The notes under the pieces are model-generated. The model saw only the letters and a list, made by a program, of their open reading frames with translations. It was not told the origin of the DNA and did no database searches. A DNA stretch of 64,000 bases from Hydrurus foetidus (taxonomy: Eukaryota). Position 1 is the first letter of the stretch. Every line of letters begins with the position of its first letter. Both the position numbers and the translations under genes were made by a program. Where the stretch lies: contig UYFQ01000006.1 of assembly GCA_900617105.1 (NCBI GenBank), forward strand, positions 868,001-932,000, written 5' to 3'. Shown in pieces: positions 338 through 60,932 of this stretch.

Positions 338-368
338 ATACCCCTGAACTACTTCTGAAAGCTGCTTG

Positions 369-3300
369 ATGTTCCAGAAAATTCTGATCGCCAACCGGGG
401 TGAAATCGCCGTGCGTTTGGTGCGTGCCGTGGCCGACATGGGCATTCAAAGCGTGGCCGTCTACGCCCAGGACGACGCCCAAGCCCTGCATGTGCAAGCC
501 GCCGATACCGCCGTCGCTTTGGGCAACCCCGGTGAAGCCCGCGCCACAGGTGCTAGCGCCTACCTCAACATCTCCCGCCTGATCGCCATCGCCTTGGAAA
601 CCGGCTGTGATGCCATCCACCCCGGTTACGGTTTCCTGAGCGAGCGCGCTGATTTCGCCACGGCCTGCGCCGAGGCCGGTCTGTGCTTCATCGGCCCCAC
701 GCCCGAGCAGCTCGCCTTGTTCGGCGACAAAGCCAGCGCCCGTGCCTTGGCCTTGAAGCACCATGTCCCGCTGATGCCCGGCAGCCAAAGCGCTGTCACG
801 CTGGCGCAAGCGCAGGCCTTTTTTGCGGCGCAACAGCCGTCATCCGTGCAAACCTCTTCTGAGCCCGTCGGCATCATGGTCAAAGCCATTGGTGGCGGCG
901 GCGGACGCGGGATGCGTGCCGTGCTCAGCGCTGATGCCCTGCCCGAAGCCTATGCCCGTTGCGTCTCCGAAGCCCGCGCCGCTTTCGGGGTAGACGGCGT
1001 GTACGTCGAGCGCTTGATGGCCAACGCCCGCCACATCGAGATTCAAATTGTGGGCGATGGCGAATCCGTCATGTCCCTGGGCGAGCGTGAATGCAGCTTA
1101 CAGCGCCGTTTTCAAAAACTCGTCGAAATCGCCCCCAGCCCTTCGTTATCGTCTGCCTTGCGCGAGCAAGTCACCGCCGCCGCACTGAAGCTCGCCCGTG
1201 CCGTCCATTACCAAAGTCTGGGCACTTTCGAGTTTCTGGTAGACGTTGCCTCCACCGATTTGCCTTTCGTTTTCATCGAAGCCAACCCGCGTCTGCAAGT
1301 CGAGCACACCATCACCGAAGCCGTTACTGGGCTGGACTTGGTGCAGCTGCAAATCAGCGTGGCAGCCGGGCAAAGCCTGCAAACGCTGGGCCTCAACCCG
1401 GCGCAACCCCCACAGCCCCAAGGCTTTGCTCTCCAGTGGCGCATCAACGCCGAGACGTTGGATACCCAAGGCAACGCCCGCCCCACCAGCGGCACGCTGA
1501 CCCGCTTTGATTTGACCCAAGGCCCCGGCATCCGCGTCGATACCCACGGCTTTGGTGGCTGCACGCCTTCACCGCACTACGATACGCTGCTGGCCAAACT
1601 GATCGTCCACAGCCCCGGCACCTTCGCTGGGGCTGCCCGCCGCGCCCGCCGTGCCCTGGCCGAATGCCGCATTGAAGGCCTCGCCACCAATCTGCCCCTG
1701 CTGCAAGCCCTGGCGGCCAGACCTGAGTTCGACACGCAGCAGGTGCATACCCGGTTTGTGGAAGCGCATTTGGGTGAGCTGCTCGCCTCAGCCGTCGGGT
1801 TCAGCGTTGCTCCTGAAAAAGAAGCGGCTCTAGCACGCCCTGTAAGCGGTAAAGGCCTATTAGATGCCTCAAAATATGCTTTTGACCCCTCCCAAACCGC
1901 CGTTTTGGCCCCCATGCCCGCCCGCCTCGTGCAACTCAACGTGGCTGTGGGCGATGTGGTGCCTACAGGCCATCAGGTGGCGGTGCTGGAGGCCATGAAG
2001 ATGGAACACCTGCTGCTCGCGGATGCCCCAGGCCGTGTGTTGGAGATTCGCGCCGCTGTCGGCGATTACCTCAGCGAAGGCCAGCCTCTGGTCGTGCTGG
2101 AGCCGGTCGATGCCGACGCTATCGCCGCCACCACCGCTCACGCCATAGACCCCGACCACATCCGCCCCGATTTGCAGCGCGTGCGCGACCGCCACGCCTT
2201 CACGCTCGACATCAATCGCCCCGCAGCCGTTGCCAAACGCCACGCCCAGGGTGGCCGCACCGCCCGCGAAAACGTCGCTGACCTCTGCGATCTGGACGCT
2301 GCCACAGCGGTGGCTGAAGGCCGCAGCAACGCCATCGGTAGCTTCATCGAATACGGCGCACTCGCTATCGCCGCCCAAACCCGCCGACGCGGCCTTGCTG
2401 ACCTCATCGCCAACACGCCCGCCGACGGCATGGTGACGGGCATTGGCACGGTCAACGCCGCGCATTTCGGCCCCGAGGCCTCCCGCTGCGTCGTCATGGC
2501 CTACGACTACACCGTGCTGGCCGGTACGCAGGGCATGCGCAACCACCATAAAAAAGACCGCATGCTGGCCCTGGCCCACCAGCTCAAGCTGCCGGTGGTG
2601 CTGTTCGCTGAAGGCGGCGGTGGGCGGCCCGGTGACACCGACATGCCCATCGTGGCGGGCCTGAACAACCACACCTTCAGCCAGTTCGCCGCACTCTCCG
2701 GCAAAGTCCCCGTGGTCGGCATCGTGCATGGCCGCTGCTTCGCAGGCAACGCGGCGCTCTTGGGCTGCGCCGATGTCATCATCGCCACAAAAATGAGCAA
2801 CATCGGCATGAGCGGCCCCGCGATGATCGAAGGCGGCGGCTTGGGCCAGTTCAAACCCGAGCAAATCGGCCCCAGCGATGTGCAATCGCGCAACGGCGTG
2901 ATCGACGTGCTGGTCGCGGACGAAGCCGAGGCCGTCGCCGTCGCCAAGCGCTACATCGCGTACTTCCAGGGTGATTTGCCCACCTGGACATGCCCTGACC
3001 AGCGCCTGCTGCGCCAAGCCATCCCTGAAAACCGCTTGCGCGTCTACGACATTCGCCACGTCATGCAGGGTCTGGTGGACACCGATTCCCTGCTTGAATT
3101 GCGCGCGGGTTTTGGCCCTGGCATCCTCACTGCGCTTGCGCGTATTGAAGGACGTGCTATTGGAATCATAGCGAACAACCCCAAACACCTGGGCGGTGCC
3201 ATCGACGTGGATGCCGCCGACAAAGCCGCTCGCTTCATGCAGCTCTGCAACGCCCACGGCTTACCGATGGTGTCGCTGATGGACACACCCGGCTTCATGG

Positions 3301-3758
3301 TTGGCCCCGACATCGAAGCCCAAGCCCAAGTTCGCCACGTCTGCCGCCTGTTCGTGGTTGCCGCCCACCTGCAAGTGCCCTTTTTCAGCGTCGTCTTGCG
3401 CAAAGGCTACGGTCTGGGTGCCCAAGCGATGGCCGCAGGTGGCTTCGATGCGCCCGTGTTCAACGTCGCGTGGCCCACAGGTGAATTCGGCGCGATGGGC
3501 CTGGAAGGTGCCGTGCGCTTAGGCTTTCGCAAAGAGCTGGAAGCGGCAGAGGAAGGCCCGGAGCGTGATGCGCTGTTCAAAAAGCTGGTGGACGAGCAGT
3601 ACAGCAACGGCGAAGCCATGAACATGGCCGCCACGCTGGAGATCGACGCGGTAATCGACCCCGCCGCGACGAGGGATTGGCTGGTGAATGGGCTGGCTTC
3701 GGTGGGAAAGGTGGGCCAAGACCGGGCCGTGGGGGGGCGGTTTGTGGATACGTGGTGA
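369..3758 (+). CDS. Single-chain multidomain biotin-dependent acyl-CoA carboxylase (BC-BCCP-CT)
   Basis: KILIANRGEIA and HPGYGFLSE (biotin carboxylase), EAMKM biotinylation motif, C-terminal carboxyltransferase (GGGRPGD, DTPGFMVG). Confidence 0.92.
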   Translation: MFQKILIANRGEIAVRLVRAVADMGIQSVAVYAQDDAQALHVQAADTAVALGNPGEARATGASAYLNISRLIAIALETGCDAIHPGYGFLSERADFATACAEAGLCFIGPTPEQLALFGDKASARALALKHHVPLMPGSQSAVTLAQAQAFFAAQQPSSVQTSSEPVGIMVKAIGGGGGRGMRAVLSADALPEAYARCVSEARAAFGVDGVYVERLMANARHIEIQIVGDGESVMSLGERECSLQRRFQKLVEIAPSPSLSSALREQVTAAALKLARAVHYQSLGTFEFLVDVASTDLPFVFIEANPRLQVEHTITEAVTGLDLVQLQISVAAGQSLQTLGLNPAQPPQPQGFALQWRINAETLDTQGNARPTSGTLTRFDLTQGPGIRVDTHGFGGCTPSPHYDTLLAKLIVHSPGTFAGAARRARRALAECRIEGLATNLPLLQALAARPEFDTQQVHTRFVEAHLGELLASAVGFSVAPEKEAALARPVSGKGLLDASKYAFDPSQTAVLAPMPARLVQLNVAVGDVVPTGHQVAVLEAMKMEHLLLADAPGRVLEIRAAVGDYLSEGQPLVVLEPVDADAIAATTAHAIDPDHIRPDLQRVRDRHAFTLDINRPAAVAKRHAQGGRTARENVADLCDLDAATAVAEGRSNAIGSFIEYGALAIAAQTRRRGLADLIANTPADGMVTGIGTVNAAHFGPEASRCVVMAYDYTVLAGTQGMRNHHKKDRMLALAHQLKLPVVLFAEGGGGRPGDTDMPIVAGLNNHTFSQFAALSGKVPVVGIVHGRCFAGNAALLGCADVIIATKMSNIGMSGPAMIEGGGLGQFKPEQIGPSDVQSRNGVIDVLVADEAEAVAVAKRYIAYFQGDLPTWTCPDQRLLRQAIPENRLRVYDIRHVMQGLVDTDSLLELRAGFGPGILTALARIEGRAIGIIANNPKHLGGAIDVDAADKAARFMQLCNAHGLPMVSLMDTPGFMVGPDIEAQAQVRHVCRLFVVAAHLQVPFFSVVLRKGYGLGAQAMAAGGFDAPVFNVAWPTGEFGAMGLEGAVRLGFRKELEAAEEGPERDALFKKLVDEQYSNGEAMNMAATLEIDAVIDPAATRDWLVNGLASVGKVGQDRAVGGRFVDTW
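1809..1874 (+). repeat. Dispersed GCT-N11-AGC motif copy (carboxylase BC-BCCP linker)
   Basis: GCTCCTGAAAAAGAAGC-GGCTCTA-GC-ACGCCCT-GTAAGC-GGTAAAGGCCTA-TTA. Confidence 0.8.
3125..3172 (-). repeat. Dispersed motif copy (carboxylase CT domain)
   Basis: Core GCTATTGGAATCATAGC 3156-3172; minus-strand tail ACGTCCT-TC-AATACGC-GCAAGC. Confidence 0.8.
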
Positions 3759-4565: not shown

Positions 4566-5342
4566 TTAGCGCTGAATCCGAACCAGCACAGTCTCAATAC
4601 CCGCAGATTCCAGCTTGTCTTTGGCACGCTCTGCATCTTCTTTGCGCTCAAAGGGGCCTGCACGCACACGGTAGACCGTACGGCCCGCTTGCTCGCGTTC
4701 GGTGACTTTGACTTCAATGCCCATCAGCGACAGCTTGGCCCGCTGGGCTTCTGCGTCGTCAGGCACGCGGAATGCACCGGTTTGCACTTGGTAGGTAAAC
4801 GGATCAACCTGCGCGTTGGATGACTTCGCCCGAGCCAGATCGCCCAAGGGGTCAGCGGACGCGGGTGGGGCTTTGGCTTCTGTAGGCTTGGGGTCAGACT
4901 TGGGCTTGGCGTCAGATTTCGCTTCGGATTTGCTGTCAGCGTCTGGCTTAACGTCGACCTTGGCTTCCGATTTACGGTCAGGTTTGGTATCAGGTTTGGA
5001 GTCCGCCTTGGGGTCAGACTTGGTGTCCGATTTAGGCTCGGCCTTCACCGTCGTGGTGACGGGGGCAGGAGCCTCTTTCGCTGGCGCCGTCGCTTCAGGC
5101 GATGGTGTGATCGCCCCCGAAGAAGAATGCACCGGGTTTTTGCCCTGGATCAAGGCATTCGGATCCCAATCTTTGTTTTTGCGGGCTTCAGCTGCATCTT
5201 GGTCATTGCTGCGGCTTTGCCCCTTGTTGATGAAAGGGACGGGCACTTTGGTGATGTAGACCGCCACTCCGAGCGCCAGCCCCAGGCCGATAACCAGGCC
5301 TAAAACCAACCCTATAAAGGTGCCGCCGCGTTGATGTTTCAT
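4566..5342 (-). CDS. SPOR-domain cell division protein (FtsN-like)
   Basis: N-terminal TM helix, K/P/D-rich linker, C-terminal SPOR (YQVQTGAF...YRVRAGPF); conserved argS-SPOR-dsbA order. Confidence 0.88.
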
Positions 5343-7027
5343 GGGGTTTCTTTCAGCATTTTTTGTGGCGCACTTACGCCAAGAACGGCCAAGCCGTTGT
5401 GCAACACCTGTGCCACCGCTGCGACCAAGGCCAGACGGGCCTGCCGCACGGGGATATCGTCTACCAAGATGCGCTCAGCGTCGTAATAGCTGTGGTAGCA
5501 AGCGGCCAGCTCGCGCAGGTAAAAGGTGACATCGTGCGGGGCGAAATCGTTGGCCGCCGCCGTCAGCATGGCGGGGTATTTGGCCAAAAGCAGCATCAAG
5601 GCCAGCGCCTGGGGGCTTTGCAGGGGTGACAAGTCGGTCGCTACCAAGCTGGCTTTGTCGCCACCCCACGCGGTCAATACCGAGCAAATGCGGGCGTGGG
5701 CGTACTGCACGTAGTACACCGGGTTGTCGTTGCTCTGGGCAATGGCCAAGTCCACGTCAAAGGTGTATTCGGTATCGGGCTTGCGGCTGAGCAGGAAGAA
5801 ACGCACGGCATCTTTGCTCGTCCACTCGATCAAATCGCGCAGCGTGACATAGCTGCCCGCGCGTTTGGAGATTTTGACCTCTTCGCCACCTTTGACTACG
5901 CGCACCATCGTGTGCAGCACGTAATCGGGGTAGCCCTGGGGAATGCCCACACCCGCAGCCTGCAAGCCAGCCCGCACCCGCGCAATCGTGCCATGGTGGT
6001 CGGTGCCCTGGATGTTGACGACCTTGTGAAAACCACGTTCCCATTTGGTGATGTGGTAGGCCACGTCGGGCACAAAGTAGGTGTAGGTGCCGTCGCCTTT
6101 GCGCATCACACGGTCTTTGTCGTCGCCATAGTCGGTGGATTTGAGCCACAGGGCGCCGTCTTGCTCGTAGGTTTTACCGGCGGCCACCAAACGCTGGACG
6201 GCGGCATCCACCTTGCCACTGGTGTACAGGCTGGACTCTAAATAGTAATGGTCGAACTTGACCTGAAAAGCCTTCAAATCCAAATCTTGCTCGTGGCGCA
6301 GGTAGGCGACGGCAAACTGGCGCATGCCGTCCAGATCGTTGATGTCCCCGCTGGCGGTGAATTCACGGTCATCGGCGTGAACCGTTTTTTTTGCTGCAAA
6401 ATCTATAGCTATATCAGCAATGTATTCACCGTTGTACGCTGATTCTGGCCATTCAGCATCACCTGGTTTGAAGCCCAGGGCACGGGCTTGGGTGCTGTTC
6501 GCCAGGGTTTGGATTTGCACGCCCGCATCGTTGTAATAAAACTCGCGGTGAACGCGCCAACCCTGGGTTTGGAACAGGCTGGCAATCGCGTCACCCAAGG
6601 CAGCTTGCCGCCCGTGGCCCACATGCAGCGGGCCGGTGGGATTGGCGGACACGTATTCGACCAGCATGGCTTTTTGGCGATCAGGTTGATAGCCGAACTG
6701 CAAGCCGCCTTGGAGCACTTCCACCACTATCTGCTGCTTGGCTTCGGGCTTCAAGGTGATATTGAGAAAGCCAGGGCCCGCGATGTCCACGGCTGCCACC
6801 CATTGCTGGAACACGGGTGTTAGCATCAGCCGGTCGCGCAAAGTTTCGCCCAATTGACGGGGGTTGAGCTTGAGCGGTTTGGCCAATTGCATGGCAGCGG
6901 TGCAGGCAAAGTCGCCGTGGGCGGCCACTTTGGGGGATTCAAAGGCGGCTTTGCTCGCAGCACCGGGCTGCAAGGCTTCGAGCTCAGCGGCAAGCGCCGT
7001 GAGTAAATCAGTTTTGACAGATAACAT
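5339..7027 (-). CDS. argS: Arginine--tRNA ligase
   Basis: [12 protein letters not shown] (HIGH), [14 protein letters not shown] motifs. Confidence 0.97.
6393..6420 (+). repeat. Dispersed motif copy (inside argS)
   Basis: GCTGCAAAATCTATAGC-TATATCA-GC; argS codons ATA GCT ATA GAT TTT GCA GCA. Confidence 0.7.
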
Positions 7028-13395: not shown

Positions 13396-14664
13396 TTATG
13401 CTGCCCCCACGCGCTGAAACAAGCCACCGGGCAAGCGAGCCAGATGACCGTCCAGCTCCAACGTCAACAGTTCTGCTTGCAACGCGGGCGTGGGCAGGCC
13501 GGTACGGGCTTGCAAGGCATCCAGGCCCACCGGGTCAAACCCGAGAGCTTGCAACAAGCTGCTTTCCGGGGCGATGGGTAACTCAATTGGGTTTTTATCG
13601 CTTACCTGGCGTGCTACAGGTGCTGCTTTTTTGATAGCAGTCTGAGGTTTCTCGGGTCGCCACTGCCCAAACTCTTCCAACACATCCTGGGCCGATTCGA
13701 CCAGCTTTGCACCCTGCTTGATAAGCGCATGGCAACCGCGGGACTGCGCTGCGTGGATCGAGCCGGGAATGGCAAACACATCTTTGCCTTGCTCGGAAGC
13801 CAGCCGCGCCGTGATGAGCGAGCCGGATTTGAGTGCGGCTTCCACCACTAGCGTCGCTTTAGAGAGGCCCGCGATGAGGCGGTTGCGGCGTGGAAAGTTC
13901 GCAGACATCGGCGGCGTGCCCAACGGGTATTCGCTGACCAGCAAGCCCTGAGATGCGATGCGGTGCGCCAGTTCAAAGTGCTGCTTGGGGTACACGCGGT
14001 CTAAGCCCGTGCCCACCACGGCCACGGTGGCTAAATGGGTGACAAGACCAGCGCCATCTGGTCCGTCTTTGCGTGCTGCCACAGCGGCGGCATCCAACGC
14101 GCCTGCATGGGCCGCGCCATCCACACCCAGGGCCAAGCCGGACACCACCGTCAGCCCCGCACCTACCAATGCTTTGGCAAACTGCCGCGCGTTTTCTTCC
14201 CCCTGTGGCGTTGGGTTGCGACTGCCCACCATCGCAATCGCGTTGCTCGCCTGGAACAAGGCCATGCCGCCAGCACTGTCGTCCTCCAAGTTAGCCCCCA
14301 CACCCATCACATACAGCAACAGCGGTGGGTCTTCCATGTTGAGCAGATCAATGGGGTAGGCGCTGTCGCCCAAGGTGACGATGCAGCGCGGCGCGGACGC
14401 TGGCTTTGAATCTGACGCTGTGGCACCGTCCAGCCACGCCTGCGTTTGCGCCCATTGCGCCTCGAAGTTTGGCGGCAACTGCCGCACCGCGTCAGCCACC
14501 TTGGCGCTGACCACCTGCTGTAATGCAGTGGCGCTGGCCTCAAAAACAGCCTCTGGCAGCCCAAAAGCGGCCAGCAGCTTGCGCGCGCCCTCGTTGCCCA
14601 AGCCGGGCGTTAAGGTCAGTCGCAGCCAAGCGGACAAGGCACGGGTGTCGCGGCTCACAGGCAT
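13396..14664 (-). CDS. dprA: DNA-processing protein DprA
   Basis: AMVGSRNPT, VVSGLALGVDGAAH, FPRRNRLIAGL, KSGSLITA motifs. Confidence 0.95.
   Translation of the reverse strand: MPVSRDTRALSAWLRLTLTPGLGNEGARKLLAAFGLPEAVFEASATALQQVVSAKVADAVRQLPPNFEAQWAQTQAWLDGATASDSKPASAPRCIVTLGDSAYPIDLLNMEDPPLLLYVMGVGANLEDDSAGGMALFQASNAIAMVGSRNPTPQGEENARQFAKALVGAGLTVVSGLALGVDGAAHAGALDAAAVAARKDGPDGAGLVTHLATVAVVGTGLDRVYPKQHFELAHRIASQGLLVSEYPLGTPPMSANFPRRNRLIAGLSKATLVVEAALKSGSLITARLASEQGKDVFAIPGSIHAAQSRGCHALIKQGAKLVESAQDVLEEFGQWRPEKPQTAIKKAAPVARQVSDKNPIELPIAPESSLLQALGFDPVGLDALQARTGLPTPALQAELLTLELDGHLARLPGGLFQRVGAA
13580..13638 (-). repeat. Dispersed motif copy (dprA linker)
   Basis: Minus strand GCTATCAAAAAAGCAGC-ACCTGTA-GC-ACGCCAG-GTAAGC-GATAAAAACCCA-ATT. 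Confidence 0.85.
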
Positions 14665-16600: not shown

Positions 16601-17610
16601 TGTGCAGCGCCCCCAAACCCTTTCGCGTCATTTTTGCCGGTACGCCTGAATTCGCCAGCGTCGCCTTGGCAGAATTGCTCGCCGCCGGGTTTGAAGTCCC
16701 TCTGGTGCTGACCCAGCCCGACCGCCCCGCCGGGCGCGGCATGAAGCTGCAAGCTTCCGCCGTGAAACTGTTGGCGCTGCAACACGGTATCCCCGTTGCC
16801 CAGCCCCGCAGCCTGCGCTTGGACGGCAAATACCCCGAAGACGCTGCTGCCGCGCAAGCTGCTATCAAAAACGCAGCTGCTGACGCTGCTGTGGTCGCGG
16901 CTTATGGCCTCATTCTTCCTGAATGGGTGCTGCAATCCCCGCCACTAGGTTGCTTCAACATCCACGCCAGCCTGTTGCCCCGTTGGCGGGGTGCCGCGCC
17001 CATCCACCGGGCCATCGAAGCCGGGGACGCACACACCGGCATCACCCTGATGCAAATGGACGCGGGCCTGGACACCGGCGACATGCTGCTGACCGAGCGC
17101 CTCGCCATCGCCACCACCGACACCACCGCCACGCTGCACGACAAGCTCGCCGCGATGGGGGGCCGCATGGCGGTCAACGCGCTGAGGCTCGCCACCGCCG
17201 GGGCACTGCAACCCGTTAAGCAGCCCGAAACAGGTATCACCTACGCGCACAAAATCGACAAAGCCGAAGCGCTGATCGACTGGTCGCAACCCGCCGAGGT
17301 GATTGAGCGCCGCATCCGCGCCTTCAATCCCTTCCCCGGTGCCAGTACCGTGCTGGGTGCAGATACGCTCAAAATCTGGAGCGCAGAAATAATCCAAAAT
17401 GATAGCGGTATACGCCCATCAGATAAGCTGAATGGGGCTATTTTGCAAGTTAACCCTGACAGCATCACCGTCCACACCGGCTCTGCGCCCCTGCGCTTGA
17501 CGGCGTTGCAACGTGCAGGTGGCAAGCGCTTGCCCGTGGCTGACTTTCTGCGTGGATTTCCGCTGGAAGTCGGCATGGTGATGGGTTCTGCCACAAAGTC
17601 TGATGAATAG
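16600..17610 (+). CDS. fmt: Methionyl-tRNA formyltransferase
   Basis: [34 protein letters not shown] motifs. Confidence 0.97.
16861..16890 (+). repeat. Dispersed motif copy (fmt, copy 1)
   Basis: GCTATCAAAAACGCAGC-TGCTGAC-GC. Confidence 0.75.
17390..17446 (+). repeat. Dispersed motif copy (fmt, copy 2; left half-core degenerate)
   Basis: TAATCCAAAATGATAGC-GGTATAC-GC-CCATCAG-ATAAGC-TGAATGGGGCTA-TTT. Confidence 0.75.
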
Positions 17611-17708: not shown

Positions 17709-18902
17709 ATGAACTTCATCCGCTTCTCTGACCTCTGCGCCCAAGGCCGTGCCCAAAACCAACGTGTCTTCATCCGTGCCGATCTGAACGTACCCCAAGA
17801 TGACGCGGGCCACATCACAGAAGACACCCGCATCCGCGCCTCGGTGCCCTGCATCCAAATGGCGCTGGACGCTGGCGCAGCGGTGATGGTCACGTCGCAC
17901 CTGGGTCGCCCCACCGAGGGTGAATTCAAACCTGCTGACTCCTTGGCCCCCGTCGCCAAACGCCTGGGTGAACTCTTAGGCCGTGACGTGCCGCTGGTCA
18001 GCAACTGGGTGGACGGGGTCACTGTGGCCCCCGGCCAGGTCGTGCTGCTGGAAAACTGCCGCGTCAACAAGGGCGAGAAAAAGAACAACGAAGACCTCGC
18101 CAAAAAGCTCGCCGCCCTGTGCGACATCTTCGTCCACGACGCTTTCGGCACTGCCCACCGTGCAGAAGCCACCACCTATGGCATCGCCCAGTTCGCGCCC
18201 ATCGCCAGCGCAGGCCCCCTCTTGGCCGCTGAAATGGATGCCATCAGCAAAGCCCTGGCCGCTCCCAAGCACCCCCTGATCGCCATCGTGGCGGGCAGCA
18301 AAGTCAGCACCAAATTGACGATTTTGGAAGCGCTGTCGGGCAAAGTAGACGGTTTGATCGTGGGCGGCGGCATCGCCAACACCTTCATGCTGGCCGCTGG
18401 CCTCAACATCGGCAAGAGCTTGGCTGAGCCTGATTTGGTGGACAAAGCCCGCACCGTGATCGCCGACATGAAGGCCCGTGGTGCGGATGTGCCGATCCCC
18501 ACCGACGTGGTGTGCGCCAAAAGCTTCAGCGCCGATGCCGTGGCCACCGTCAAAGCCGCTACCGACGTGGCCGACGATGATTTGATCCTGGACATTGGCC
18601 CAGAGACCGCCGCCCGACTGGCCGTCCAGCTCAAAGCCGCTGGCACCATCGTCTGGAACGGCCCCGTTGGCGTGTTCGAATTCGACGCCTTCGCCCACGG
18701 CACCGAAGCAATAGCCCGCGCCATCGCCGACAGTGCTGCGTTTTCGATAGCAGGCGGTGGCGACACCCTGGCCGCTATCGCTAAATACGGCATTGAGGAA
18801 CAAGTCGGTTACATCTCCACCGGCGGCGGTGCTTTCTTGGAAGTGCTGGAAGGCAAGACCCTGCCTGCGTTTGAGATTTTGCAGAAGCGGGCGAATGGGT
18901 AA
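17709..18902 (+). CDS. pgk: Phosphoglycerate kinase
   Basis: [35 protein letters not shown] motifs. Confidence 0.97.
18710..18751 (-). repeat. Dispersed motif copy (inside pgk)
   Basis: Core GCTGCGTTTTCGATAGC 18735-18751 overlapping the conserved FSIAGGGDT; minus tail ACTGTCG-GC. Confidence 0.7.
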
Positions 18903-25504: not shown

Positions 25505-25972
25505 GTGTTCCTTCACAAAAAAATAAGCTCAAACCCAGTGGTTAAGCTTTCTGCATCAGCATCTGAAGCTATTAAAAAAGTAGCGGCCTCAACCCCGCCC
25601 ACAACCAAGCAGCAAGGCGATGCAGCCGAAGACGCGGCACTGCGCCACTTGCAAGCCGCTGGCCTGCGGCTGGTACAGCGCAATTATCGAACGCCAGGGC
25701 GCGGTGGCGGTGAGATTGACCTGATTGTGCGTGCGCCCGACGGCACGCTGGTGTTTGTGGAAGTCAAGCGCCGTGCTACCACCCGCTTTGGCGGTGCCGC
25801 CGCCAGCGTCAGCGCGGTGAAGCAGCGGCGCATTGTGTTTGCTGCCCGGCACTTTTTGATGCGCCTGCCCACACCACCACCCTGCCGGTTTGATGTGGTG
25901 ATTTGGGAAGGTGGGGAGGTCGGTGGCCGTATCGAATGGCTGCAGGCCGCGTTCGATGCATCCTCGTTTTGA
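25505..25972 (+). CDS. yraN: YraN-family (UPF0102) putative nuclease
   Basis: G..AE..A...L, GEIDLI, LVFVEVK, CRFDVV; start uncertain. Confidence 0.9.
   Translation: MFLHKKISSNPVVKLSASASEAIKKVAASTPPTTKQQGDAAEDAALRHLQAAGLRLVQRNYRTPGRGGGEIDLIVRAPDGTLVFVEVKRRATTRFGGAAASVSAVKQRRIVFAARHFLMRLPTPPPCRFDVVIWEGGEVGGRIEWLQAAFDASSF
25525..25584 (-). repeat. Dispersed motif copy (yraN N-terminus, near the rsmI start)
   Basis: Minus strand GCTACTTTTTTAATAGC-TTCAGAT-GC-TGATGCA-GAAAGC-TTAACCACTGGG-TTT. Confidence 0.85.
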
Positions 25973-30524: not shown

Positions 30525-31283
30525 ATGACCACGATTACCTCGCAGATGACTTTGACCATGAACTCGACGACAGCTCAGAACCTTCAGGCCGTGCAGGCGC
30601 AAATCGCCCAAGCCTGCACCCAGGCAGAGCGTGACCCGGCCAGCGTCACGCTCTTGGCTGTTTCCAAAACGCAAAGCCCCGCAGCCCTGCGCGAAGCCTG
30701 CGCGGCAGGACAAACCGCGTTCGGTGAAAACTACATCCAAGAAGCCCTGGGAAAAATCGCCGCCCTGCGGGATTTGCCGCTGCAATGGCACTGCATAGGC
30801 CCCCTCCAAAGCAATAAAACCAAACCTGTGGCGGAGCAGTTTGATTGGGTTCACAGCATTGACCGTCTGAAAATCGCCCAGCGCCTGAGCGAGCAACGCC
30901 CCGCAGACTTGCCCCCTTTGCAAGTCTGCTTGCAAGTCAACATCGACGGCGGTGACACCAAATCGGGCGTCGCCCCAGAGGATGCACAGGCCTTGGCGCT
31001 GGCCGTGGCAGCACTGCCCCGGCTGACCTTGCGTGGCCTGATGACGATACCTGAACCTGCTATTGATTTTGAAGCGGCTTTAGCAGTTCATACAAAGGCT
31101 ACAGCCCTTTTTAATACCCTGAAATCAGCCCTCGGGCCACACGCGGCACGCTTTGACACCCTCTCCATGGGTATGAGCGCCGACCTGGACGCGGCCATTC
31201 AGGCCGGCAGCACGATGGTGCGGGTGGGGACGGCGATTTTTGGTGCGCGGGCAGCGAAGGCCATCTTCGCAACGCCAGCCTGA
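30525..31283 (+). CDS. yggS: PLP homeostasis protein YggS
   Basis: LLAVSKT, FGENYIQE, LSMGMSAD, MVRVGTAIFG; divergent from pilT. Confidence 0.95.
   Translation: MTTITSQMTLTMNSTTAQNLQAVQAQIAQACTQAERDPASVTLLAVSKTQSPAALREACAAGQTAFGENYIQEALGKIAALRDLPLQWHCIGPLQSNKTKPVAEQFDWVHSIDRLKIAQRLSEQRPADLPPLQVCLQVNIDGGDTKSGVAPEDAQALALAVAALPRLTLRGLMTIPEPAIDFEAALAVHTKATALFNTLKSALGPHAARFDTLSMGMSADLDAAIQAGSTMVRVGTAIFGARAAKAIFATPA
31059..31124 (+). repeat. Dispersed motif copy (yggS)
   Basis: GCTATTGATTTTGAAGC-GGCTTTA-GC-AGTTCAT-ACAAAG-GCTACAGCCCTT-TTT. Confidence 0.82.
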
Positions 31284-32682: not shown

Positions 32683-35600
32683 ATGCCAGACCGCCTACCC
32701 GCCCCCTACCGCCCTGAAGCCCAAGTTCTTGCTGAGCGCCTGCGTGTATTGCACGGCGGTGCGCTCGACTGGGCCAGCGCGGCCCGCAGTGCCCGCCCCT
32801 GGGTGCAGGCCGTGCGCGAAAACCCGCCGCCGTTTTGGGCGATGGAAAGCCTGCTCAAGGAATACCCTATCTCCAGCGCCGAAGGCTTGGCGCTGATGCG
32901 GCTGGCCGAGGCTTTGCTGCGCGTGCCCGACGCACAAACCGCCATCGCCCTCACCGCCGACCAACTGGGTCGGGCGGACTTTGAAGGCGGCAGCGACGGG
33001 ATGCTGGCGAATTTGTCATCGGCGGCGATTGCGATGTCCAAGCGGTTTTTGCCCCACGAAGGTGGCCATCAACCCCATTTGCTGACCAAACTGGGCGCAA
33101 AAACCGTGGTGGCGGCGACGGTACGGGCCGTACAGCTGCTGGGCAAACAGTTTGTACTGGGTCAGACGATTACCGAAGCCATGAACGAGGCTGTCAGCGC
33201 TCGCAAACACACCACTCATCTGACTTTCAGCTACGACATGCTGGGCGAAGGCGCACGCACCGAGGCCGATGCGCAGCGCTACCTGGCCAGCTACACCAGT
33301 GCTATACAAAACATAGCTACCCGTGCAGATAAAACCTGCGAAGTTGAACGTAATGACGGTATTTCTATCAAGCTGAGCGCCCTGCACCCCCGCTACGAAC
33401 ACACCCAGCACGCCCGCGTGATGACCGAGCTGGTGCCGCGCGTGTGGGGGCTGTGCGAACTGGCGGCCAAGGCCAGCATCAACCTGACGATTGACGCGGA
33501 AGAGGTCGATCGCCTGGAACTTTCGCTCGATGTGTTCGAGGCCTTGCTCGCTCAGGTAGCACAGCATTACCCCCAGTGGGGCGGCTTTGGTTTAGCCCTT
33601 CAGGCCTACCAAACCCGGGCGCTGGAGCTGATTGAACATGTCACCACGCTGGCCCGCCAATACCAAGTTCGCCTGATGTGCCGCCTCGTCAAAGGCGCGT
33701 ACTGGGACGCTGAAATCAAACGCACCCAAGAGCTGGGCTTGCCGGCCTACCCGGTGTTCACGCACAAGCACCACACCGATGTGTCTTATCTCGCCTGCGC
33801 CCAAGCCCTGCTGGCCGCGCCAGACACGATTTACCCGCAGTTTGCAACGCACAACGCGGCCACCATCGCGGCGATTTTGCAGATGGCGGCGAAATCCAAC
33901 ACGTCCAGTTTCGAGCTGCAACGTCTGCACGGCATGGGCGAAGGTGTCTATCGGGAAGTGCTAAAGAACCCGCTCATCGCCTGCCGTGTCTATGCCCCCG
34001 TCGGCGCGCACAAAGACCTGCTGGCTTACTTGGTGCGGCGTTTGCTGGAAAACGGCGCGAACTCGTCCTTCGTTCACCAGCTTGCCGATGAATCGGTGCG
34101 CATGGAAGAGTTGCTGATTTCGCCTTTACGGCTGGAACCCGTCAGTGCCGTGACCCTGCCCGCTGACCTGTTTGGCCCCTCGCGCAGCAACAGCGCGGGC
34201 CTGGATTTGGCGGTGCATGAGATGCTGGCCCCGCTCTTGGCGGCCTACACCACCACAGCGGTGCCTGCGGTGACTGAATTTGATGTCAAAACCACAGCTA
34301 CAGCAGTAGATAAAAGCTATACCAGCTATCAAAATTGGAGCAAAAAACCCGTTTCTGAGCGTGCCACCACCCTGCGCCAGGCCGCCGATGCGCTGCAAAC
34401 GCAAATGCCCCGCTTTTGCGCCTTGCTGGTCAAAGAAGCCTTCAAAACCTGGGGCGATGCTGTAGGCGAGGTGCGCGAGGCAGTGGACTTTTTGCGCTAC
34501 TACGCCGCTGAAGCCGTGCGCCTGATGCAGCCGATGATGATGCCCGCGCAAGGGGCTGGCGACAACTTGGGCATCACAGGCGAAAGCAACACCCTGCGCC
34601 TCACCGCTCGCGGCCCCTGGGTGTGCATCAGCCCGTGGAATTTCCCACTGGCAATCTTCATGGGCCAAGTCGCCGCCGCGCTGGCCACGGGCAATACCGT
34701 GCTGGCCAAACCAGCGGAACAAACCCCTGGCATCGCGCTGGAAGCTGTGCGCCTGCTGCACGCGGTGGGTGTGCCTGTGGACGCTTTGCAGCTCTGCCAC
34801 GGCCCCGGCGAGACCGTGGGCGCAGCACTGGTGGCCCACCCTGGCATTGCGGGCGTGGTGTTCACCGGCTCTACAGCTGTCGCCAAAATCATCAACCGGG
34901 CGCTGGCCGCGAAGGACGGCCCCATCACGCCGCTGATTGCGGAGACAGGCGGCATCAACGCGATGCTGGTGGATTCGACCGCGCTGCCCGAGCAGGTGGC
35001 CGATGCCGTGGTGCAAAGCGCCTTTCGCAGCGCAGGGCAGCGGTGCTCGGCGCTGCGGCTGCTGTGCGTCCACGAGGCCATTGCCGACAGCGTGATCGCC
35101 ATGGTGCAGGGGGCAGCTCAGGCACTGGTGGTAGGCGACCCCGCTGACTTGGCGACGGATGTAGGGCCGGTGATTGATGCGGAGGCCTTTGCATGCATCC
35201 AGCAGCATGTTGTACGGTTAAAAACAGCCTCAAAACCTCTCTTTTCGCCCTCTTTATCAACAGATAATGCTATGAATTTGATACTCCCTCACGCATTTGA
35301 GGTAGCGCAGATCAGCGACATGAAACACGAGATTTTTGGCCCCGTGCTGCACATCGTTCGCTGGGGCAGCGGTGCTTTGAGCGACCCAGCGGCAGTGATC
35401 GCCCAGATCAACCAGCTCGGCTACGGCTTGACGTTGGGCATTCAGACCCGCATCGACAGCCGCGCCCAGGCGCTGGCCGCGTTGGCGCACACGGGCAATG
35501 TGTACATCAACCGCAACATCATCGGCGCAGTGGTGGGCTTGCAGCCGTTTGGCGGCGAGGGTTTGAGCGGCACCGGGCCTAAAGCCGGTGGGCCGCATTA

Positions 35601-36439: not shown

Positions 36440-37408
36440 CTAATTCAACACCATGCTCAAGCGACGGCGGTAGGTCGATACCAGCGCGGCTTGCGGGTCT
36501 TCTTTCACTGCGGCTTTGCCTGCCAACTCGATGCCACCCGCTGTTTTTCCCGATGCATCGGCGGCCACCTTGGGTTTGGGTGGCGTCAGCAGCTCCAAAA
36601 TCGCCACGTAGGTTTTGCGCGGTGCCTGGGCGTTCCAGGTTTTGTCGCGCATGATGATTTCAAGCAACTCGTCCATGGACTCCAGCATCGCGCCTTGGGC
36701 CATCAGCACCTGGCTTTTGGCGAAGCGGGTGTCAAAGTCGCGCTTGTTTTTGGCGATTTCGGCATCAAACTCAGCAACAGACCAATTGGCGCGGGTGTCA
36801 GTAGCTACAAATTCCATAGCTTTCAACCACTGCACCAGCGCCTCAAAGCGCAGTTGCACGGGGATCTGCACCAGCGCGGGGGCCAGCGCACTGTGGGCTT
36901 CGGGCAGGTAGCCCAAGCTGATGAGCAGTTTGGCGTAGTCAAAGCGGGCATCGTCATTGGCGGGGTTGTCGGCCAACGTCTCTTGCAGCTTGACCAAGGC
37001 CAGCTCCGGGTCAGCGGCATCCGCGTCGGCGCGGGCTTGGGCTTCGGCGCTCAGCGCTTCGTCTTCGGGGGCCAAAGCCTCTGCTGAGGGCACATGCTTT
37101 TCCAAAAAGGTGCGGACTTGACCTTCGGGCAAAGCACCGGTGAAGCCGTCTACCGGCTTGCCCTCGATGACCAAGATGCAGGTGGGGATGCTACGCACAC
37201 CGAACGCAGCGGCGAGCTGCTGTTCGTTGTCCGAGTCAATTTTGACGAGGTTGAAGCGGCCCTCAAAGTCGGCTTCCAGCTTTTCCAGCACGGGGCCCAG
37301 GGATTTGCAGGGGCCGCACCAGGGTGCCCAAAAGTCCACCAAAACGGGGGTGGTCATGGAAGCCGCGATCACATCGGCCTCAAAGTTTTGCAGGGTTACG
37401 TCAATCAT
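36440..37408 (-). CDS. ybbN: Thioredoxin-TPR chaperedoxin (YbbN/CnoX)
   Basis: DFWAPWCGPC plus C-terminal TPR region ending YRRRLS. Confidence 0.9.
   Translation of the reverse strand: MIDVTLQNFEADVIAASMTTPVLVDFWAPWCGPCKSLGPVLEKLEADFEGRFNLVKIDSDNEQQLAAAFGVRSIPTCILVIEGKPVDGFTGALPEGQVRTFLEKHVPSAEALAPEDEALSAEAQARADADAADPELALVKLQETLADNPANDDARFDYAKLLISLGYLPEAHSALAPALVQIPVQLRFEALVQWLKAMEFVATDTRANWSVAEFDAEIAKNKRDFDTRFAKSQVLMAQGAMLESMDELLEIIMRDKTWNAQAPRKTYVAILELLTPPKPKVAADASGKTAGGIELAGKAAVKEDPQAALVSTYRRRLSMVLN
36757..36820 (-). repeat. Dispersed motif copy (ybbN)
   Basis: Minus strand GCTATGGAATTTGTAGC-TACTGAC-AC-CCGCGCC-AATTGG-TCTGTTGCTGAG-TTT. Confidence 0.78.
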
Positions 37409-38020: not shown

Positions 38021-39411
38021 ACACCACCCCAGACTCCTGCGCTGCTGAGGCCTTGCTGCCCGGTGCCCTGCCGCTGCTGCACTCCACCCCCATCCCCCAC
38101 GTGGGCGACCACCGCGTCAGCCTCGACGACGCTGGCGAGCTGTCCCTGCGCACCGCGACGGCACGCCCCCGAGAAAGCCGCCCCAGCACGATGGGGGGCG
38201 AGCACCAAATGACTTTGGGCGTGATGGGCGGCGGCCAGTTAGGCCGCATGTTCGTCCACGCAGCGCAGCAAATGGGCTATTTCACCGCCGTGCTCGACCC
38301 TGATGCCGCCAGCCCCGCCGGGCATGTCAGCCACATACACGTTCAAACCGATTACCGGGATGCCGCAGGTTTGGCGCAAATGGCTGCCCAGTGCGATGCC
38401 ATCACCACCGAGTTTGAAAACGTACCGGCCCCCGCGCTGCACACCCTGAGCGCGTCGCGCCCCGTGGCACCCGGTGCCAACGCCGTCGCCATCGCCCAAG
38501 ACCGCGCCCAAGAAAAAGCCCACTTTGGCCGCTGCGGTGTGCCCTGTGCGCCTTACGTGTTGATCGAAACCGTGGCCCAACTCAAGGCCGTGGACGCCGC
38601 GATGTTCCCTGGCATCCTCAAAACGACCCGCATGGGCTATGACGGCAAAGGCCAAGCCTCTGTGCCTGATGTTGCCGCGCTGCTGCTGGCCTGGGAACAC
38701 CTGGACTACGTGCCCTGCGTGCTGGAGAAAAAACTGCCGCTGGCCTCTGAGTGCTCCGTCATTCTGGCGCGGGGGCGCGATGGGCAGATGGTGAACTTCC
38801 CCGTGCAGCTGAACCTGCACCGCGAAGGCATCTTGGCCGTGACCCAGGTTTACACAGGAAATATCTCCGCAGCGCTTGCTGAACAAGCGGTAGCAGCTGC
38901 GAAATCCATAGCGGAAGGCTTGCAGTACGTCGGCGTGCTGTGCGTGGAGTTTTTCGTGTTGAAAGACGGCTCACCCGACGCTGCTGCCCTCGGTGGCTTG
39001 ATTGTCAATGAGATTGCCCCGCGCCCGCACAACAGCGGCCACTACAGCATGGACGCTTGCGACAGCTCGCAGTTTGACCTGCAAGTGCGCACCCTGGCCG
39101 GTTTGCCGTTGACGCAGCCGCGCCAACACAGCCCCGTCATCATGCTCAACCTGCTGGGCGACCTGTGGGCCAAAGGCACGCCCGCATGGGACACGGTGCT
39201 CGCGCTGCCCGGCACCCATTTGCACCTGTACGGCAAGCTTAACCCCAGTGTCGGGCGCAAGATGGGCCACCTGAACATCACCGGTGCCACCATCGAGGCC
39301 GTGCAGGCCACCGCGCTGCAAGCCGCACAGCTACTGGGCATTGCACCTTGGGCACTGGGCGGCGGCGATCTGACGCACGCGGCACCCGCGACACCAGCAG
39401 TATCCGCATGA
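38017..39411 (+). CDS. purK: N5-CAIR synthetase
   Basis: [31 protein letters not shown]...GRKMGH; N-terminal insertion. Confidence 0.95.
38849..38912 (-). repeat. Dispersed motif copy (purK)
   Basis: Minus strand GCTATGGATTTCGCAGC-TGCTACC-GC-TTGTTCA-GCAAGC-GCTGCGGAGATA-TTT. Confidence 0.85.
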
Positions 39412-40424
39412 TCCTCGACGGCAACGCCCCCAGCGCCATCACCACGGCAGCCCTTGCCTTGCAACGCGGCGAGCTGCTGGGCTTGCCCACAGAAACCGTC
39501 TACGGCCTCGCCGCTGATGCGGGGCAGGCACAGGCTGTCGCCAACATCTTCAGCGCCAAGGGCCGCCCTAGCGACCACCCGCTGATCGTCCACGTCGCCG
39601 ATGTGGCCGATGCTGCGCACTTCGCCGCCCACCTGCCCAGCTTCGCGCACCGATTGATGCAAGCCTTTTGGCCCGGCCCGCTGACCTTGATCGTGCCCCG
39701 TGCCCCTGGCATCGCCGCAGCCGCTGCGGGCGGGCAAGACTCCATCGGCCTGCGTTGCCCTTCGCACCCAGTAGCACAGGCGCTGCTGCGGGCTTGCCGC
39801 GATCTCGGGGTGATGGGCTTGGCGGCACCCAGTGCCAACCAGTTTGGCCGCGTCAGCCCCACCACCGCCGCCCATGTGCAGGCCGAATTTGGCGACAGTT
39901 TGCTGATTTTGGACGGTGGCGCGTGCAGCGTAGGCATCGAATCCACCATCATCGACTGCACCCGAGGCGTGCCCCTGCTGCTGCGCCCTGGTGGCATCAC
40001 CCGCGAACAGATCAAGGCGACGTGCGGATTGAATGTGCCACCGATGCTCTCGAATCAAGAGCAGTCAACACATACAGAACAAGCACCCAAAGCCTCTGGC
40101 ACGCTGGAAGCCCATTACGCGCCCAAAGCTCCGGTGCGTCTGATGAGCGCCAAAGCGCTGCAAACCGCCATCGACATCCTCGGCCCTGACGCTGCGAACA
40201 TCGCGGTGTGGGCGCGTTGCCCGCTGCAAGTCCGCGCCGCTCACCTGCTGGTGCGCCGCATGCCCGACGACGCGCAAGCCACCGCCCAGCAGCTGTTCGC
40301 CATGTTGCGCGGCTTTGACGACCAAGGCTGCAAGCTGATCTGGATAGAGACCCCCCCCGACGACGTGGCCTGGGAAGGCGTGCGCGACCGCTTGCAGCGG
40401 GCTACAGCCGCTACAACCCCGTAG
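39408..40424 (+). CDS. tsaC: L-threonylcarbamoyladenylate synthase (Sua5-type)
   Basis: PTETVYGL, KGRP.DHPLIVH, APSAN, C-terminal SUA5 domain (HYAP). Confidence 0.94.
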   Translation: MILDGNAPSAITTAALALQRGELLGLPTETVYGLAADAGQAQAVANIFSAKGRPSDHPLIVHVADVADAAHFAAHLPSFAHRLMQAFWPGPLTLIVPRAPGIAAAAAGGQDSIGLRCPSHPVAQALLRACRDLGVMGLAAPSANQFGRVSPTTAAHVQAEFGDSLLILDGGACSVGIESTIIDCTRGVPLLLRPGGITREQIKATCGLNVPPMLSNQEQSTHTEQAPKASGTLEAHYAPKAPVRLMSAKALQTAIDILGPDAANIAVWARCPLQVRAAHLLVRRMPDDAQATAQQLFAMLRGFDDQGCKLIWIETPPDDVAWEGVRDRLQRATAATTP

Positions 40425-41419: not shown

Positions 41420-41457
41420 TCCACGCGGTTAAGGCCCGCAGACAAGCGCCCTTGCGC

Positions 41458-44998: not shown

Positions 44999-46036
44999 TC
45001 AATCCACCTTCGCGCCTGAGGCTTTGACGACTTGGGCCCATTTCTTGTGCTCATCCACGATGAAGCTCGCAAACTCTTGCGGCGTGTTGCCGCTGGGCAG
45101 CGCCCCCTGGGCCAACAGTTTTTCTTTGATGGCGGGGGTGTTGAGCGATTTGGCTACTTCTTGCTGAATGCGGCTCACGGTGTCGGCGGGTGTGCCTGAC
45201 GGGGCCAGCAGGCCAAACCATGAGCTGGCATCGTAGCCTTTGAGGGCGGGGCCACCGGCTTGCGCGATGGTGGGCACGTCGGGCATGGCCGCTGAGCGCT
45301 GGGCGCTGGTCACGGCCAGGGCTTTGAGTTTGCCGCCTTTGATTTGAGGCATCGAGGACGGCAAGTTGTCGAACATCACATCCACATTTCCACCCACCAT
45401 GTCGAGCAGCGCCGGGCCGGAGCCTCGGTAGGGGATGTGCGTCATGAAGGTGCCGGTCATGGTTTTGAACAGCTCACCGGCGAGGTGGATCGACGTGCCG
45501 TTGCCGCTGGACGCCATGCTGAGCTTGCCGGGGTTGGCGCGAGCGTACTGGATGAAATCCGCCACGGTGTTGATGCCTCGCGCCCGCGCCGCCTCGGTGT
45601 TCACCACCATCACATTGGGCACAGCGGCCACGAGGGTGATGGGCGCGAAGTCTTTGAGCGAGTCAAACGGCATCTTGTCGTACAGCGCCCGGTTGATACC
45701 GTGCGTGCCCACGGTGCCCATCAGCAGCGTGTAGCCGTCTGCGGGCGATTTGGCCACCACGTCAGCGCCCAGATTGCCGCCCGCACCGGGCCGGTTTTCG
45801 ACGATGAACTGCTGGTTAAACGCTTTAGACAACTCCGGTGCCATCGCGCGGGCCAAGATGTCGGTGGTGCCGCCTGCGGCGAAGGGCACGACGATCTTGA
45901 CTGGCTTGGTAGGCCAGGAGGCTTCCGCCAGCACAGGACTTGCTATGAAAAATGTAGCTGTTAAAGCAGATGCAGTAAGCAGGGTGCGCCAGTTTAATGG
46001 TGTTTTTTCAGGTGTGGAATGAACAGACAAGGGCAT
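44999..46036 (-). CDS. Tripartite tricarboxylate transporter substrate-binding protein (Bug/TctC)
   Basis: [29 protein letters not shown]. Confidence 0.93.
45942..46000 (+). repeat. Dispersed motif copy (Bug signal-peptide region)
   Basis: GCTATGAAAAATGTAGC-TGTTAAA-GC-AGATGCA-GTAAGC-AGGGTGCGCCAG-TTT. Confidence 0.87.
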
Positions 46037-48546: not shown

Positions 48547-49803
48547 TCAAGCGTAGCTGCGGGCATCCTCAATCACTTTGCCATCGTTGGGCAGGCTGCC
48601 GGTGGGCACGATCAGCACGTCGCCACGCAGTTTGGTGATATCGCGCACGGCTTGTCCTAGTGACTCGGCCAGCGTGCCCATGTCGGCCAGCGCCTCGGGG
48701 CTGACTTCTACTTTCAGCGTCATCTGGTCGTTCGCCATTTCGCCGCTGACCACCAAGCGCGAGCGCAGCACCTGGGGGAAGCGCCGGGCAATGTCAGCCA
48801 CTTGGCTGGGGTGGACGAACATGCCACGGATTTTGGTGGTTTGGTCGGCGCGGCCTAGCCAGCCTCGGATGCGGGTGTTGGTGCGGCCCGTGGGGCAAGG
48901 GCCGGGCAGCACGGCAGACAGATCGCCGGTGCCAAAGCGGATCAGCGGGTAGCCTTGGTTGAAGGTGGTGATGACGACTTCGCCCACTTCGCCATCGGGC
49001 AAGGCCTCACCCGTGCCGGGGCGGACGATTTCCAACAATCACGCCTTCGTCAAGCACCAGGCCTTCGCGGGCTTCAGTCTCATACGCGATCAGCCCCAAA
49101 TCAGCGGTGGCGTAGCACTGGTAAATGCACGCCGCGCGCAAGTACCAGTCGCGCAAGGCTGGGCGGAAAAGCTTCGCCGCCAACCAGCGCTTTGGTCATG
49201 CTGGGATGTCACGCCCATTGCTTCCGCTTTTTCGACCATGATTCCGCAGAAAGCTGGGCGTGCCGATGTAACCATCGGGCGAAGCTCGGCAATGGCTTCC
49301 ACCTGCTGCTCGGTCTGGCCCGTGCCGCCTGGGAACACGGTGCAGCCTAGCGCGTGGGCACCGCTTTCCATCATCGCGCCAGCGGGCACAAAGTGGTAGC
49401 TGAAGCAGTTGTGGATCAGCTCACCGGGGCGAAAGCCTGCGGCAAACATGGAACGCGCCATGCGCCAATGGTCTGGCCCCACGCCATCGGGCTCGTACAA
49501 GGTGCCGGGGCTGGCGAAGACGCGGGGCATTTTTGCTCCGAATTTGGTAGCACTGAAACCACCAAACACATCCTCTGAGCGGTGCTTCTGCTGTAATTCG
49601 AGCAGCTCGTGTTTGCGCGTGACGGGCAATTGGGCCAGCGCGGCGCGGCTGGTGATGCTGGGCGCTGCCACCCCTTGCAGGATGCGGGCAAAAGCCGGTG
49701 CATGGGCCTGCGCATGGGCGATTTGGCCGGGCAAGGCGGCGAGCAACGCGGCCTCACGCAGGGCAGGGTCACGGGATTCCAGGGCGTCAAAAAAATCGCT
49801 CAT
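48547..49803 (-). pseudogene. Phenylacetate-CoA ligase-like (PaaK family) gene, frameshifted as given
   Basis: ORFs 49090-49803 and 48547-49038 are halves of one protein (HNCFSYH..., YPLIRFGTGD); 49040-49280 garbled, probably sequencing error. Confidence 0.7.
49535..49560 (+). repeat. Dispersed motif copy (PaaK-like gene)
   Basis: Core GCTCCGAATTTGGTAGC; tail weak. Confidence 0.6.
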
Positions 49804-60847: not shown

Positions 60848-60873
60848 AAAAAAGGGCACCGCAGTGCCCTTTT
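60848..60873 (-). terminator. Intrinsic terminator after the phasin gene
   Basis: AAAAAAGGGCAC-CGCA-GTGCCCTTTT. Confidence 0.8.
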
Positions 60874-60932
60874 AGCCAAAATATGGCGAACTTGCTTTAT
60901 CAGGCAGCAGGTGTAGCTGCAACTTCGATAGC
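60870..60932 (-). repeat. Dispersed motif copy (spans the phasin stop codon)
   Basis: Minus strand GCTATCGAAGTTGCAGC-TACACCT-GC-TGCCTGA-TAAAGC-AAGTTCGCCATA-TTT. Confidence 0.82.

Follow-up and report, generated by a model that had tools for sequence, protein, structure and literature searches.

Why should unrelated genes of one chromosome carry, at scattered places, the same short string of bases, written in codons that these genes otherwise seldom use? The question is raised by the window (the whole stretch of DNA analysed here, 64,000 nucleotides), a chromosome piece that is about 90% coding and whose host, judged from its genes, is a Comamonadaceae bacterium. Its Pgk is 80–88% identical to that of Rhodoferax, Polaromonas, Limnohabitans and their kin, and the closest of the genomes compared are G103, with which it shares 96% identity in ArgS, and G453. 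A metagenome scan found no close relatives of the window (best match 64% identity), and a single-sequence structure prediction of Pgk was unusable (pLDDT 41).

The core motif is GCTAT-N7-ATAGC, with an A/T-rich spacer. The initial annotation had pointed to seven places in the window, and the letters it described are present at all seven. Among them, only those at 3156 and 33301 are exact, while 6393, 18735, 34325 and 38896 each have two mismatches; when spacers of 0–15 were compared, exact matches were obtained with a spacer of 7 alone (2/2). A scoring matrix trained on loci of other genomes and then applied to the window yielded 20 matches of at least 6 bits, 19 of them within genes. Coding matches of at least 12 bits numbered 13, against 0.81 expected and a maximum of 4 in 200 synonymous-codon shuffles. 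The weak matches at 4383, 6677, 41489 and 51784 lie inside the chance range (the null gives 6.5 matches of at least 6 bits).

The 17 bp highlighted originally are real as a core, but the whole unit is longer: the core is the invariant end of an oriented element of ~63 bp, made up of the 17-bp spaced palindrome and a tail of ~46 bp. In relatives, 57/79 sampled cores carry the oriented tail, and T3 and A15 of the T-N11-A core are present in 57/57 tailed copies. One reading of the element is a row of three 17-bp units, placed at positions 1, 23 and 45 (a 22-bp period); unit 1 is the same in every lineage and unit 2 is lineage-specific. The tetramer after the core is CGCA, AGCA or GGCA, not CTAT. 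Positions 24–38 covary across lineages, though not among the copies of G163. At the 20 scored window sites, two of which were picked by eye or from the earlier note, 13 tails lie above, 2 at and 5 below the 99th percentile of 3000 random positions, the last being those at 3156, 6677, 25568, 41489 and 49535. By these scores, most coding copies are whole, degenerate elements, and 3156 is nearly a solo core. Strong core pairs 67–68 bp apart, about three 22-bp periods, occur at G163:C1 54850, 112840 and 285053, and the close core pairs of G163 suggest a fourth unit. The sites in the window are as follows.

1809..1871, plus strand: tailed copy with a degenerate core in a linker of the biotin carboxylase gene (366-3758); tail score 13.1; also present in G103.
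3156..3172, strand unassigned: exact 17-bp core encoding AIGIIA in the carboxyltransferase domain of the same gene, fused biotin carboxylase 366-3758; nearly solo, weak tail.
6393..6455, plus strand: element antisense to argS (5339-7027); in 3/33 orthologues, no indel.
13576..13638, minus strand: tailed copy in the dprA linker.
16861..16923, plus strand: element over fmt residues; no indel, tail score 8.3.
17390..17452, plus strand: decayed copy in a variable fmt loop, left arm lost.
18735..18797, plus strand: site in pgk; it has the core and a GCT at positions 40-42, and the invariant GGGDT that separates the two is intact.
25522..25584, minus strand: strong core within yraN, in its N-terminal extension.
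31059..31121, plus strand: full element over a yggS helix; tail score 19.9, no indel.
33301..33363, plus strand: ancient putA site encoding AIQNIA, tail in the next loop; in 14/15 motif-rich and 0/15 motif-poor genomes.
34279..34341, minus strand: ancient putA site, antisense, frame 1, encoding SYQNWS; 22 residues re-encoded at equal length.
35269..35285, strand unassigned: third putA core, four codons off the Rhodoferax-type site.
36758..36820, minus strand: core in a gene with a thioredoxin domain (36440-37408); retained in G453, whereas G103 has other bases at the silent positions.
38850..38912, minus strand: ancient purK site, antisense, over a helix ending AAKSIA.
40046..40108, plus strand: frame-2 copy in the tsaC linker; it has the variant GAG at the point where TAG would read as a stop.
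45942..46004, plus strand: copy antisense to a TctC receptor gene, in its N-terminal part, which resembles a signal peptide.
49535..49551, strand unassigned: core in a paaK-like gene; absent in G103.
60870..60932, minus strand: copy at the C-terminus of a PHA-granule protein gene.

Rare codons had been said to set the cores apart from the rest of their genes, and counts bear this out. ATA is far from equally frequent inside and outside the matches, making up 9/17 isoleucine codons inside and 30/929 outside (p = 2.5e-9, odds ~34-fold), and GCT makes up 14/20 against 400/2589 alanine codons. Only 9/39 ATA codons of the window lie inside matches; the other 30/39 lie outside. The codons fixed in the main frame are ATA, which makes up 4% of Ile, and GCT, 16% of Ala. 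Frame 0 yields A-x-x-x-I/V-A and frame 1 Y-x-x-x-S; the peptide A-x-x-x-x-A, described earlier as that of most copies, is encoded by 15/19 coding matches (p = 6e-5), frame 1 being used in 2 and frame 2 in 2. Frame 2 is restricted to variant arms because TAG would fall in frame. Of the two places previously assigned to other frames, putA 34325 (SYQNWS) is indeed in frame 1, and fmt 17390 retains the right half only. The core score there is −10.6 and the tail exceeds the 99th percentile of the null; we read it as a decayed copy in a variable loop because the tail scores high despite the half core. The initial annotation placed the core in conserved catalytic-domain sequence; 7/18 compared sites (1809, 13622, 17390, 25568, 40046, 45942, 60916), that in fmt among them, are instead located in a linker, a loop, a terminus or a signal peptide.

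Comparison with orthologues indicates how such sites arise. The 3156 site is found in 3/31 orthologues (window, G103 and G453), which form one clade with support 99; this comparison covers the best 30 of 43 matching genomes, from 80 searched. The site was acquired without an indel: the other 28 orthologues encode R-P/A/S-V/I/M-G-x-L/M/I-A in common codons at the same length, and the peptide changed from RPVGL(L/M)A to RAIGIIA. In argS the window has the site, and so do G163/G273, which form another clade (3/33 orthologues), with a change from AADFLA to AIDFAA; on this distribution it was gained twice, independently. On the window branch there were 8 base changes in 21 nt against 1.5 expected, and 2/16 amino-acid changes. 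Overlapping 21-nt intervals reach 9, one unrelated stretch also reaches 8, and across all genes clusters of base changes are not unique to sites. The pgk peptide at the site is almost invariant in 81 sequences, and ATA is used there in 4/83 orthologues (window, G103, G453 and L048), upholding the view that even this gene is affected through its codons; GCT at element positions 40–42 accompanies 3 of those 4 ATA users and 2/79 others. In fmt, 13 Rhodoferax-type loci have an AMNS-type site where others have CG-x-G. Indels are absent at six conserved-domain sites (3156, 6393, 16861, 18735, 34325 and 38896). In five genomes a putA loop has 22–32 residues rather than 18, with a full copy in the lineage's own dialect (described below) in G273. 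Site origin may well be mixed, with copying into tolerant places and base-wise gain in conserved ones. The original proposal of a force acting on the DNA is supported, with the refinement that the peptide is also altered, at 3156 and argS.

The element is unevenly distributed. Among 301 Comamonadaceae genomes, 86 are motif-rich, with at least 20 exact cores (20–394 each, against 0–7 for the control), 209 have at most 8, and 6 are intermediate. Named loci show motif-rich genomes in most of the Rhodoferax group and in some Polaromonas and Brachymonas-like genomes, whereas Limnohabitans, Hydrogenophaga, Curvibacter, Hylemonella and Sphaerotilaceae are poor. The complete genome G002 has 51 matches, found in 19/20 samples round the chromosome, 24/51 of them in ORFs. 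In G163, 440 kb contain 128 matches, 67 intergenic, 50 deep in genes and 11 at gene edges (61/128 in ORFs), with a strand skew of 69:35. The genic share is thus about half in relatives and 19/20 in the window, and both gene orientations carry sites. Five plasmids (1.45 Mb) gave 8 matches against 15 for the reversed control. A longer pattern is matched by 33 viral stretches, some of which, in phage genes, are full elements; in two phage contigs, L293 and L319, the gene for the terminase large subunit contains a full element, identically positioned. Replichore polarity of the KOPS or Chi kind was rejected, as the orientation does not switch across G002 (8+/17− then 8+/9−), and terminus exclusion was not seen in that genome at 190-kb sampling. 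A transposon end was likewise rejected: when plasmids were searched by blastn with one copy, no IS came up.

Once present, sites can be very old. The putA site at 33301 is kept in 28/29 Rhodoferax-genus loci at 72–75% DNA identity, these being the best 30 of 150 BLAST matches less one partial match, and biased towards the window. In a panel of 15 rich and 15 poor genomes selected by motif count, it is present in 14/15 and 0/15, respectively; many poor genomes keep A-I-x-x-I-A with GCC and ATC. The 22-residue stretch at putA 34325 is re-encoded antisense in 14/15 rich genomes (at least 9 bits) and 0/15 poor ones, and has been lost in a few Rhodoferax lineages. The only ATA-modal isoleucine column of 34 in putA, and the only three GCT-modal alanine columns of 116, all lie in sites, where amino acids and spacers vary and the fixed positions persist. 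In purK, ATA is used by 21/24 rich and 0/8 poor sequences (G485, with N, left out), and five other conserved isoleucine columns use it in 0–5%; one motif-poor genome still scores 12 bits at this site. Silent positions are conserved at 17/23 in sites against 5715/11610 elsewhere (p = 0.02). Excess synonymous conservation, on which the initial annotation had staked its inference, is therefore present, with silent positions frozen across genera only in motif-rich genomes.

Loss is seen between sisters. G463 has 19 matches in 140 kb; G461 and G244, its sisters at ~83% identity, have a single match apiece, over 140 and 120 kb (~87–90 kb aligned). Coding sites in G461/G244 are GC-shifted remnants, and intergenic copies are missing, matching indels between the sisters. 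At purK, tails score +1.4 and −5.0 in G461/G244 and +1.5 in G488; in five poor genomes that are more distant, the scores run from −25 to −47. This decay implies that the force can be lost. The Pgk of G463 (L012) groups with Polaromonas, support 95, and the entry, titled Synechococcus sp., is likely mislabelled.

The element also has dialects. Positions 23–27 read, almost exclusively, GAGCA in G201/G052, AGGCA in G163 and GCGCA in G002; counts of RTAGCT-N4-GAGCA/GCGCA/AGGCA are 957/13/0 in G201, 753/7/2 in G052, 2/4/383 in G163 and 1/210/2 in G002. Scored for the G163 dialect, all 15 G163/G273 coding sites reach +11 to +30, whereas 45 sites from ten other genomes range from −45 to +0.2; GAGCA is present in 15/16 orthologous G201/G052 coding sites. 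The putA sites of G201/G052 switched through single-base changes, one turning CGC into CGA and one replacing Ala with Ser. Position 24 is A in six copies of the window. From these orthologous positions, old coding sites switched along with the dialect of their genome. Together, the comparisons of genes and genomes demonstrate a DNA-level, position-specific force on double-stranded DNA that creates, holds, updates and can abandon sites.

What exerts this force? Our preferred reading, to which we give a probability of roughly 0.45, is that the sites are copies of a ~63-bp signal that originate in place and are held by molecular drive, most likely an uptake or recombination bias in natural transformation. 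A sequence-specific DNA-handling machine in motif-rich lineages would recognise the element, and DNA matching this recogniser better would replace DNA matching it worse, with biased uptake or recombination during natural transformation as the putative route. Selection on proteins would decide where copies settle, favouring the Ala/Ile frame and tolerant helices and loops, and TAG would mostly close the third frame. Drive is ranked first because drifting specificity and repeated loss fit a non-essential drive; because the pattern matches the uptake-sequence model of mutation, drive and selection of Findlay and Redfield, as set out in the accessible part of PMC2817400; and because selective transformation is reported in Comamonadaceae, the accessible text of PMC4212676 describing selective uptake in Verminephrobacter eiseniae and species-limited transformation in Acidovorax. 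A recogniser, which we infer to be present in motif-rich lineages, would be able to change specificity or be dropped, which fits drive better than an essential structural role. Dialect switches and repeated loss lean towards drive rather than selection.

Several observations weigh against uptake. The element is long, palindromic at its core and written in rare codons, unlike known uptake sequences, and competence genes showed no variation with the motif in the genomes compared: ComEC is found in 66/69 genomes regardless of it, and ComEA (HHH_3) and ComP-like (ComP_DUS) genes in 5/5 of a sister-pair panel, rich and poor alike, so that genomes which lost sites have kept these genes. The strand skew in G163 and the 12-bit purK score of one motif-poor genome also count against it. 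Seven candidate families for the recognition factor were compared with motif abundance, and none tracks it.

An alternative, which we consider unlikely though it fits the palindromic anatomy better than uptake drive does, is that the element binds a chromosome-organising or topology-controlling protein as phased dimers, each site being kept by fitness selection. In its favour are the palindromic 5-7-5 core with its invariant T-N11-A and A/T spacer, the three units spaced by 22 bp, close to two turns of the helix, and the absence of arm-to-arm covariation within G163; four of five close pairs in G163 lie 67–69 bp apart. Spacing between sites is slightly more even than random (CV 0.79, p = 0.023; 0.86, p = 0.13; and 0.81), and HIP1 has been argued to act likewise (PMC5861425, in its accessible part). 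Near-complete dialect switches at ~900 sites are hard to square with a needed role, as is repeated loss in sister lineages, and in the 5-genome panel the counts of H-NS and of integrases of the XerC/D family do not follow the motif.

Rather improbable, in our judgement, is a REP-like or template-written repeat, in which an enzyme would copy the element to places that tolerate it and rewrite short stretches of similar coding DNA, so keeping the sites and updating them. Signs of copying, which also count against base-wise drive, are the lengthened putA loops, with full dialect copies, the clustered multi-base codon changes in argS and the exact runs shared between G163 copies, longer than in column shuffles (99th percentile 24 against 17–19). 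Intergenic copies are indels between sisters, copies occur in phage contigs, the 15-nt tract is very uniform in G201/G052 and the second spacer is uniform in G163. In most rich genomes a copy also adjoins, on one side, the terminal repeat of a single-copy Y1/TIRYT-like (RAYT-like) gene, where it decays in poor sisters like other sites. However, the RAYT-like orthologue is in 59/60 genomes and intact in motif-poor sisters, and the Y1/RAYT family as a whole (36/40 rich, 27/40 poor) does not follow the motif. No two of 104 G163 copies are identical (best pair 54/63), spacers and flanks at orthologous sites stay locus-specific, most copies fold with ordinary hairpin energy (z −2.7 to +0.6), the pgk matches flank an untouched GGGDT, and 3156 is almost without a tail.

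Regulatory operators of the LysR/OxyR kind, RNA signals and by-products of mutation bias or peptide needs are highly improbable: the core is identical with CTAT-N7-ATAG, the middle part of the OxyR consensus and a string that occurs in OxyR-related papers, and shares the T-N11-A of LysR-type operators, but the sites lie mid-gene in both orientations, the third tetramer (CGCA/AGCA/GGCA) departs from the four phased ATAG/CTAT tetramers found at promoters, Rfam gave 0 matches in the window, motif-poor genomes encode A-I-x-x-I-A with common codons, and synonymous-codon shuffles with the rich/poor orthologue contrast reject chance or peptide need as the origin of sites.

Under molecular drive, the element is best read as working like DNA uptake sequences yet failing their sequence definition. 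DUS of Neisseriaceae and USS of Pasteurellaceae likewise have hundreds of chromosomal copies, many in ORFs and arising by mutation; they leave an imprint on the proteome, are rare on plasmids and have lineage dialects, those of DUS reportedly described by Frye et al. in 2013. Unlike the present element, of ~63 bp with a palindromic 17-bp core, they are non-palindromic words of 9–11 bp (the accessible text of PMC4212676) and favour preferred codons (that of PMC2817400); the element fixes rare ones, occurs once per 3–10 kb, and has a putative uptake role. HIP1 of cyanobacteria (GCGATCGC), recently tied to transformation according to the available portions of PMC5861425 and PMC13756078, is also palindromic, over-represented and kept inside ORFs at the DNA level beyond peptide needs, but is an 8-bp methylase site, whereas the element is spaced, tailed, oriented and has dialects.

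REP/BIME with RAYT share hundreds of copies, about half of them intergenic in relatives of the window, an RTAG followed by an imperfect stem, and a copy beside a Y1-family gene; the element differs in arising within genes without insertion (19/20 genic here) and without near-identical families, and the Y1 gene does not track its abundance. Rickettsia palindromic elements are repeat DNA in frame inside housekeeping genes, adding residues. The element is similarly translated in housekeeping genes, but its six conserved-domain sites add none, the exception being the longer putA loop in five relatives. Two repeats are reported from Comamonadaceae. BRE of Betaproteobacteria (~90 bp, 69% GC, at most 29 copies, sometimes inside CDS, in the accessible part of PMC3110155) is like the element in being found in this family and able to lie in CDS, and unlike it in length, GC and copy number; VeiPR1 of V. 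eiseniae (PMC3975124, in part) was set beside it by description only. A literature search found no description of the element, although supplements or subscription papers might contain one. New here are the rich/poor contrasts, convergent gain, decay in sisters and dialect switching.

To our knowledge, sequence-driven genome signals are known in few bacterial groups (DUS, USS, HIP1), and it has long been asked whether they are built by drive or by selection. We give even odds that Comamonadaceae have a third genome-wide self-recognition system, so far undescribed, with a 63-bp tripartite signal, dialects and a recogniser (uptake receptor or template-guided writer) that rewrites essential enzymes and switches one base at ~900 sites in concert. 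The family offers natural controls largely lacking elsewhere: close sisters that differ in having the signal, dialects that exclude one another, and a codon run at which it was gained convergently. These make the factor (by gene-content profiling) and drive versus selection directly testable. The system also implies that some amino acids and rare codons in Rhodoferax/Polaromonas enzymes reflect DNA-level pressure and not protein adaptation.

Some further features were noted. The TIRYT/RAYT-like gene (L350-L379) is flanked in the loci examined by GGGGTCAGA/GGGGAC-type inverted repeats, and looks domesticated. The gene usually found 3′ of it is presumably gltB, judging by its start. TIRYT terminal repeats are as described in the accessible part of PMC6006769. 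A second argS-like gene, 75–76% identical, is present at G002:C2 254322-256013, on a second replicon, and at G090:C1 34684-36369. Near residue 180 of G103 putA (C8 ~41382-41468, L242/L243), ~80 nt of GC-rich sequence are inserted in frame; they have no relation to the 63-bp element and are possibly another repeat such as BRE. In the window, two 93-nt direct repeats, 81% alike, at 7260-7454 are internal repeats of psiF, and a PIN-domain gene at 18916-19425, on the opposite strand between pgk and pyk, has no homologue in the G103/G453 stretches. At 53172-56847, a branched-chain ABC transporter/acyl-CoA ligase cluster has three genes frameshifted relative to intact G103 orthologues (livH near 53476, livG near 54533-54581 and fadD near 55564-55604), reflecting either a decaying operon or sequence errors.
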